Of a stretch of DNA of 64,000 nt, positions 16,601 to 17,345 are shown piece by piece. Under the pieces are notes generated by a model. It made no database searches, was not told where the DNA came from, and saw nothing but the letters and a program-made list of their open reading frames with translations. Every line of letters begins with the position of its first letter. The first letter of the stretch is position 1. Made by a program: the position numbers and the translations under genes. Source of the DNA: Schmidtea polychroa (Eukaryota); the NCBI GenBank assembly GCA_044892525.1, contig CM097885.1, forward strand, positions 27,034,001 to 27,098,000, read 5' to 3'.

Positions 16601-17345
16601 TATGACCTTGATGAGTCATCGCGATGACTCATATGACCTTGGCAATGACCTTGGATGAGTCATGCGACCTTGAAAATGACCTTGATGAGTCATAGGATGA
16701 CTCAGATGACCTTGAAAATTTTTGATGAGTCATGGTATGAGTCATATGACCTTGAAAAATTTTCGATGAGTCATAGTATGAGTCATATGACCTTGAGAAA
16801 TTTTTTTCAAGGTCATACGAGTCATAGTATGAGTCATGTGGCCTTGAGAAAATTTTTTCAAGGTCATATGACTCATACTATGACTCATATGACCTTGAAA
16901 ATGACCTTGATGAGTCATAGGATGAGTCAGATGACCTTGAAAAAAATTTTTCAAGGTCATATGAGTCATATTATGACTCAGTTGCCCTTGAAAATGACCT
17001 TGATGAGTCATAATATGAGTCATGGTCTTTGTTTAAATGACCTTGAAAATTTTGATGAGTCATACTATGAGTCATACGACCTTGAAAAAAAATTTTCAAG
17101 GTCATATGAGTCATAGTATGACTCATTTGACCTTGAAAATGACCTTGATGAGACATGGTCTTTGTTTAAATGACCTTGAAAAAAAATTTTTGACCTTGAT
17201 GAGTCATATTATGAGTCATACGACCTTGAAAATGACCTTGATGAGTCATAGGATGAGTCATGGTCTTTGTTTAAATGACCTTGAGAATTTTGATGAGTCA
17301 TCGGATGAGTCATGGTCTTTGTTTCAATGACCTTGATGAGTCATA
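16601..17345. promoter_or_regulatory. Subterminal array of AP-1-type TGA(G/C)TCA and NR5A/ERR-type TCAAGGTCA (TGACCTTGA) motifs, probably within the TIR
   Basis: Both motifs repeated tens of times in both orientations; E2F-like TTGGCGGGAA at ~16514. Function inferred from consensus match only. Confidence 0.75.

Follow-up and report, generated by a model that had tools for sequence, protein, structure and literature searches.

Host-factor sites are known from the terminal repeats of adenoviruses (NFI and Oct-1 in the ITR) and of retroviruses (LTR U3), where they couple the element to the state of the cell. Those sites are few and fixed in position, whereas the Polinton array described here holds about 50, varies in copy number and shows family-specific swaps between TRE, CRE and related words. 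By our comparison the closest known system appears to be the baculovirus hr with its CRE/TRE clusters; the array would work like an hr without being one. According to the part of PMC13513840 available to us, baculovirus hrs, like the array, are repeat arrays (390–880 bp) rich in host bZIP motifs in a DNA virus; their enhancer strength correlates with how many CREs and TREs they contain; they are also origins. The same part of the paper describes them as dispersed and mostly CRE-like, with a 30-bp palindrome as their basis on which the viral protein IE1 acts. In contrast, the Polinton array lies in the terminal repeats of an integrating element and has 29 perfect TREs and 23 NR5 words. No counterpart of IE1 was found for it, and in place of the imperfect 30-bp palindromes, units of about 70 bp and IE1 by which an hr is recognized, it has units of 12–51 bp with 9-bp words. 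The second word recalls the SmFTZ-F1 elements of Schistosoma mansoni, which have the same CAAGGTCA core and are bound in vitro by a flatworm NR5 receptor (PMC8673669); unlike the array, these are single sites upstream of host genes in another species, as far as the accessible sections of that paper go.

Polintons, Mavericks and adintoviruses, in the portions of PMC6431247, PMC8097293, PMC10748475 and PMC8502044 open to us, measure 15–25 kb, have TIRs of 100–1,500 bp and 6-bp TSDs, and encode PolB, an integrase, a protease, an ATPase and a likely capsid protein, features that our element shares. The available part of PMC8502044 mentions Bcl2/IAP cargo and a TBP label, and virions of vertebrate Mavericks had not been observed according to that of PMC8097293. 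In the same portions of these four papers, the accounts of Polinton TIRs deal with length and end motifs only, with no arrays of factor sites. A search of titles and abstract openings, with subscription papers, Repbase reports and bioRxiv supplements outside its reach, found none that describes arrays of factor sites at the ends of Polintons. Within the sections available, PMC9522251 contained nothing relevant to the array and the main text of the planarian genome preprint mentioned neither Polintons nor Mavericks. The Polinton terminal array is probably a variant of viral control region that is new to the literature searched.

The window analysed here is a stretch of 64,000 nucleotides from Schmidtea polychroa (GCA_044892525.1, contig CM097885.1, positions 27,034,001 to 27,098,000), and the coordinates of its main features are collected in Table 1. 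The element spans 19.5 kb (G000:C1:27031981-27051463), with TAAATT flanking both ends, and is a Polinton by the criteria in the accessible parts of PMC6431247, PMC8097293 and PMC10748475. Its TIR of 1.26 kb is accompanied by a target duplication (TAAATT) within the expected 5–8 bp; the rve integrase, adenain protease and packaging ATPase were recognized by Pfam (rve below cut-off); and the protein-primed family-B polymerase was recognized indirectly, through relatives at PF03175 loci, with no direct Pfam match to PF03175. The terminus reads AGTAGA, as against (AG)3 and (AGT)2 for the vertebrate end motifs in the accounts available. Genome-wide, the 18-bp terminus has 1,761 exact copies (control 0), three further copies of the element have matching 6-bp TSDs, and the capsid-type gene is present in at least 102 copies at 99–100% identity. 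The family of the window's Polinton is large and young.

Table 1. Coordinates of the Polinton, its terminal array and a second insertion (window positions)
Feature	Position	Strand	Remarks
Family-B polymerase	539..4516	-	57-59% identical to proteins at PF03175 loci; indirect
Adenain-type protease	7397..7828	-	Pfam Peptidase_C5, E 3.5e-06
Likely major capsid protein	7813..9033	-	3/39 aligned relatives with a DJR-like domain (best E 0.0072)
rve integrase with chromo-like tail	10407..11486	-	Pfam rve, below cut-off; in-frame (ATT)n run
Packaging ATPase	12100..12726	-	Pfam Pox_A32, E 3.6e-07
TBP-like gene, element-encoded	12826..13263	+	Pfam TBP, E 1.3e-15
Predicted beta-barrel protein	14115..14525	+	weakly similar to ssDNA-binding proteins of phages; none matched at E<=0.001
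Likely two-exon Bcl-2-like gene	15130..15644	-	Pfam Bcl-2, E 0.015, below cut-off; Atlas Bcl-2 clusters 0.90-0.91
Right terminal inverted repeat, 1,261 bp	16203..17463	.	mate upstream of window start (G000:C1:27031981 onwards)
E2F-like word TTGGCGGGAA	16514..16523	+	in 46/51 repeats with end found; also in related families
Motif array, AP-1/TRE and NR5 words	16601..17345	.	modules of 40-51 bp
Five TCTTTGTTT words	17026..17356	.	each adjoins an AP-1 or near-AP-1 word; composite seen again in related families
G-run and terminal block ending ...CTACT (other strand 5'-AGTAG)	17407..17463	.	
6-bp target-site duplication TAAATT	17464..17469	+	matched at left end
Start of unrelated insertion with Polinton-type end	63928..64000	+	end region with 11 AP-1 and 6 NR5 words, NR5 in 29-bp units

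No bZIP or receptor domain was found by Pfam in 30 reading frames of the element (13 + 17, some overlapping). The protein encoded at 14115 is neither bZIP-like nor receptor-like and had no match in the Atlas, the 13453 protein returned no known fold in a fold search, and the capsid-type protein had no sequence match in the PDB. The element also encodes a RING protein. Of the genes that read inward, away from the array, the nearest is the Bcl-2-like gene, whose second exon was placed by inspection and whose splicing is putative; contigs of four sequencing runs over this region cover intergenic DNA too and show no intron joint. Most right-arm genes read towards the terminal repeat, and thus the array is not the promoter of most of them. 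Within the integrase gene, an in-frame (AAT)n run of 19 units (11040–11097) reads as poly-isoleucine. A 165-aa frame at 15750–16247, for which no function was found, has hydrophobic ends and a coiled-coil-like middle and stops at the inner edge of the TIR, and one GCTGCATGC-containing repeat lies on either side of the polymerase gene (143–303 and 4847–5514).

A preliminary description of this DNA had placed a dense array of AP-1 and NR5-type sites in a terminal repeat region, and exact counts bear this out. The 745-bp stretch at 16601–17345, which falls within the right TIR, contains 29 AP-1 words (TGASTCA) and 23 NR5 words (TGACCTTG/CAAGGTCA), 21 of the latter as 9-mers. Both counts lie far above those in 2,000 dinucleotide shuffles of the stretch, a comparison that the description had itself suggested (AP-1 mean 0.35, maximum 3; NR5 mean 0.07, maximum 2), and the remaining 63 kb of the window has nine AP-1 and two NR5 words. 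That the region consists ‘almost wholly’ of such motifs was overstated, as exact cores cover 387 and 9-mers 461 of the 745 bp. The array words conform to the AP-1/TRE site definition TGA(C/G)TCA, in which the centre position alone is free (the TRE word being that in a note to Table 2 of PMC13513840, a paper available in part); 26 of the 29 are full ATGASTCAT, with G at the centre in 22 and C in four. AP-1 words are mostly paired and 19 NR5 words are direct, which makes AP-1 pairs 12 bp apart and direct NR5 repeats the dominant layout. NR5 words inverted around A/T spacers, to which attention had been drawn earlier, are present but in the minority (four of 23 here, 158 of 1,442 over 55 arrays). 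A third word, TCTTTGTTT, which we take to be of the HMG-box Sox/TCF type, occurs four times in the stretch and once more just outside it at 17348, and the word noticed near 16514, presumably an E2F-like site, was located there as TTGGCGGGAA. The left terminal repeat, which differs from the right by 19 substitutions as well as by indels, has 30 AP-1 and 25 NR5 words. A coding function of the array was rejected, as its frames of 153, 96 and 97 aa are translated repeat and array lengths vary freely. An assembly artefact was rejected because the array stands at both ends of the element, with matching TSD, and at 55 loci.

Conservation of the words was followed in 55 arrays of the family, 40 collected by DNA similarity and 15 from 20 copies chosen by the capsid gene alone; at the expected end of the other five copies there was no array. 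These arrays span 424–972 bp and hold 11–37 AP-1 words (median 26) and 10–35 NR5 words (median 21). Across 635 AP-1 pairs the core positions are 95–99.5% invariant and the three spacer positions 86, 49 and 68%; alleles common to at least 20 arrays numbered 0/36 in the cores and 6/9 in the spacers (Fisher p 1e-5, which is too optimistic because the array copies are related). The AP-1 centre base was G in 1,122 words, C in 143, A in four and T in two. NR5 variants present in at least 16 arrays are confined to the three degenerate positions of YCAAGGYCR, the NR5 consensus quoted in the part of PMC7239656 available, and each occurs in several flanking contexts; variants at the six fixed positions are found in at most 11 of the 55 arrays. 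Position 3 also accepts two non-consensus bases (30 and 16 arrays). Palindrome repair could protect the AP-1 words, and micro-inversion could produce their G/C centre swap with no selection involved, but palindrome repair cannot explain the conservation of the NR5 word, because that word is not palindromic. The motif words of the array are real and probably selected.

The identification of the words as Jun/Fos-type and NR5 sites is supported by the presence of matching factors in the host, whose genome encodes Jun-like and Fos-like bZIPs at C3:56224892, C2:17317395 and C1:69908513. Among the 30 of 53 receptor (zf-C4) loci inspected, one DNA-binding domain, at G000:C2:159884029, has an NR5 P-box. 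Of the solved structures, SF-1 and NR5A2 match it best; the best relatives of its gene are those of flatworms, and an entry named S. mansoni FTZ-F1 shares 72% identity with it. Apart from the two additional bases at position 3, the NR5 response element is found here together with a receptor to match. NR4A, whose site is AAAGGTCA, was rejected as the receptor, as this site misfits the invariant C of the array word. The receptor class suggested earlier, FTZ-F1/SF-1/ERR, can probably be narrowed to the NR5/FTZ-F1 type. ERR is disfavoured: inspection of 30 of the 53 zf-C4 loci, many of which show one finger only, revealed no ERR P-box (EACKA), and ERR is reported missing in S. mediterranea and in parasitic flatworms (PMC8363021, in the part available). 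SmFTZ-F1 bound eight of eight oligonucleotides with CAAGGTCA and three of 29 without it (PMC8673669, S4 Table). A link of the receptor to gonad or stem cells, also raised at first, is not supported; the schistosome FTZ-F1 relative acts in the oesophageal gland, according to the accessible text of PMC8673669. The nearest recognized host gene begins about 21 kb from the end of the element. Host genes in the window include those for a TIR-domain protein (38876–39394), a proteasome subunit (56016–56612) and a protein kinase (61650–62450), and two identical 300-bp copies 11.3 kb apart (21806–22105 and 33107–33406) may be terminal repeats of a sequence that inserted recently.

In related families, for which one to four elements each were looked at and the names are our own, the words occur in repeat units of 31 bp (15 AP-1, 6 NR5), 29 bp (11, 6), 13 bp (9, 2), 212 bp (13, 0) and 14 bp (13, 1), and a 41-bp unit forms a pure NR5 array. 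The polymerases of the 31-bp-unit element and of the insertion at 63928 are 56–72% and 48% identical to that of the window's Polinton (the capsid-type protein of the latter is 84% identical), yet both words are common to these elements. Array type tracks neither polymerase nor integrase: elements with polymerases 95–98% identical differ in array, and integrases 89–95% identical accompany different arrays. In two families the same ACAAAGA word is flanked by 8-bp CRE or TTACGTCA/TTACGTAA words, and the genome contains 1,068 copies of the CRE composite (control 0). When a TRE is exchanged for a CRE, both half-sites remain and their spacing alters, which bZIP dimers allow. When 7-mers were ranked by enrichment in nine termini, TGACTCA came first or second in four; the top words of the other five are not bZIP sites. 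The proposal that motifs but not spacers should be conserved across Polinton families was borne out in part: both within the family and across related elements the words persist as the spacers vary, as in an enhancer, but bZIP words are absent from two of ten termini, and the termini examined from two families (capsid-type protein 67% and 77% identical) lack exact AP-1, CRE and NR5 words altogether. One of these site-free families is the source of most PF03175 matches, and thus such arrays are not needed for success. Since termini share blocks and recombine, the word arrays represent repeated amplifications and not fully independent origins.

Several other elements were noted at these loci. 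The Polinton-type element inserted at 63928 (L222-L223) measures 15 kb; its 5.5-kb arms are 99.4% identical, and an AP-1 word lies 21 bp from its end. Polinton mosaics are apparent between the window at 7813–13263 and L158-L201, with capsid-type proteins 95–97%, polymerases 53–73% and TBP-like proteins 57–97% identical, and different termini. Pure NR5 arrays in 38–41-bp units stand apart from AP-1 arrays (L202, 3178–3644; L218, 603–914). Another abundant element type (L207, L204 and L219) has ends with an AGTAG terminus and one TCAAGGTCA roughly 30 bp away from it, and L210-L217 contain a tandemly repeated relative. Palindromic elements (L073-L080, L167-L169) have 6-kb arms more than 99% identical, and their central spacers, with E2F-like and bZIP words, resemble the terminal blocks of other families. 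In L086 (about 2855–3099), a 245-bp element with AGTAG...CTACT ends sits inside the AP-1 repeats of another family.

Genome-wide, TCAAGGTCA has 97,461 copies and its reversed control 3,031 (32-fold), and for ATGAGTCAT the figures are 67,878 and 2,876 (24-fold); the AP-1-plus-NR5 composite has 11,990 occurrences and its reversed control none. As a rough product of 1,761 ends and the median number of sites, about one-third of TCAAGGTCA and two-thirds of ATGAGTCAT belong to the family of the window's Polinton, and the motif-rich loci sampled look by eye like Polinton-type ends, among the matches listed. Viral contigs yielded 11 loci that have the AP-1 pair and lack an NR5 word, and no capsid relative. 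Metagenomes yielded at least 119 loci, none matching the element proteins and with at most 20 scattered words, among the matches listed. Three metagenome contigs (L228, L265 and L275) hold an unrelated repeat, the AP-1 word with TGACCTTG repeats, and have no match to the element proteins.

On the strength of these sequence data, we consider it likely that the array in both terminal repeats is a host-factor enhancer that switches on the Polinton, working like a baculovirus hr or an LTR U3 region. This is supported by the presence of the array in both repeats, the motif counts, the fixed cores with varying spacers, the separate amplification and the presence of the host genes. Host Jun/Fos-type bZIP dimers and an FTZ-F1-type receptor would bind the array, and binding would open chromatin at the ends of the element. 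The accessory genes of the right arm, 0.4–4 kb away (TBP-like, ssDNA-binding-like and Bcl-2-like), would then be turned on first; the Bcl-2-like product could offset stress-induced death, and afterwards the TBP-like protein would drive the structural genes. AP-1 and FTZ-F1, together with a putative HMG-box factor and E2F, would jointly indicate that a cell of a given type is under stress and cycling.

NFI and Oct-1 assist replication at the adenovirus ITR, and host bZIP and NR5 factors might similarly bind here mainly for protein-primed replication or end handling. This is compatible with an enhancer, and the array may also aid replication, because it begins 120 bp from the terminus; as the main role, we think it unlikely. 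The words do stand at both ends, with the first bZIP word 21–154 bp into the end in the eight termini having one, palindromic elements have single NR5 words some 30 bp from their terminus, and baculovirus hrs combine origin and enhancer (PMC13513840, in the part seen). However, within that range the distance to the terminus is not conserved, the arrays of the family hold 11–37 sites each, and array type does not follow polymerase type; an additive enhancer fits the varying end distance and site number better than does a fixed initiation complex. It is distinctly unlikely that the words are sites of an element-encoded protein (integrase, packaging or regulatory) that mimic the AP-1 and NR5 consensus, like subterminal transposase sites. 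Among the matches listed, the words are largely confined to Polinton-type ends, which fits such a protein as well as it does a host binder. Among the accessory proteins, the one encoded at 14115 follows the sites best: families with bZIP words have its gene, which was not found in the family that lacks them. However, the 14115 product, modelled as a beta-barrel with weak ssDNA-binding matches, also occurs in a family with TGAGTTA variants only. Other candidates are the 13453 protein and several short spliced frames without annotation, but the 13453 gene was not found in one site-bearing family, and a TBP neighbour that is 13453-like by eye is present in a family without sites. Furthermore, integrases of high identity go with different arrays, and two unrelated words, each with the degeneracy of the host consensus, would require two mimics.

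A structural or neutral array, in which palindromic words have grown by slippage or template switching and displaced-strand hairpins, or nothing at all, are what is kept, is in our judgement very unlikely. The array strand does fold strongly (-176.8 kcal/mol against -67.9 for 20 shuffles, z -19), and shuffles of motif order retain -140 kcal/mol. Arrays range from 424 to 972 bp although the capsid-type protein is 99–100% identical, and tandem repeats are found in termini without sites as well. However, 516 of the 635 AP-1 pairs are G/G and form a mismatched stem, with 92 forming a perfect one, and seven of the 55 arrays lack the exact inverted NR5 word; one array folds at -12.9 kcal/mol per 100 nt, compared with roughly -24 for the array in the window. 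Selection for hairpins is disfavoured by these pairs and arrays, and the hairpins look like a by-product of local inversions; neutral amplification predicts neither the pattern of NR5 degeneracy nor the same words in six repeat periods.

A broader and more tentative extension of the enhancer interpretation is possible. Each Polinton family may read the state of its host through swappable terminal arrays tuned to a bZIP code of its own (TRE, CRE or PAR-type), with or without FTZ-F1, and wounding or regeneration, acting through AP-1, may be the induction signal, like the SOS induction of prophages. Wounding as the trigger is suggested by what is generally known of AP-1. The ends might then hold most of the strong AP-1 and NR5 words of the genome, enough to titrate the factors or to rewire the wound response of the host. 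In practical terms, Polinton ends would dominate motif scans and ChIP or ATAC analyses of AP-1 and NR5 in this genome. For the question of what activates animal Polintons, and in which cells, the array names candidate host factors. Since wounding and RNAi are routine in this group of animals, the activation of Polintons becomes directly testable here.
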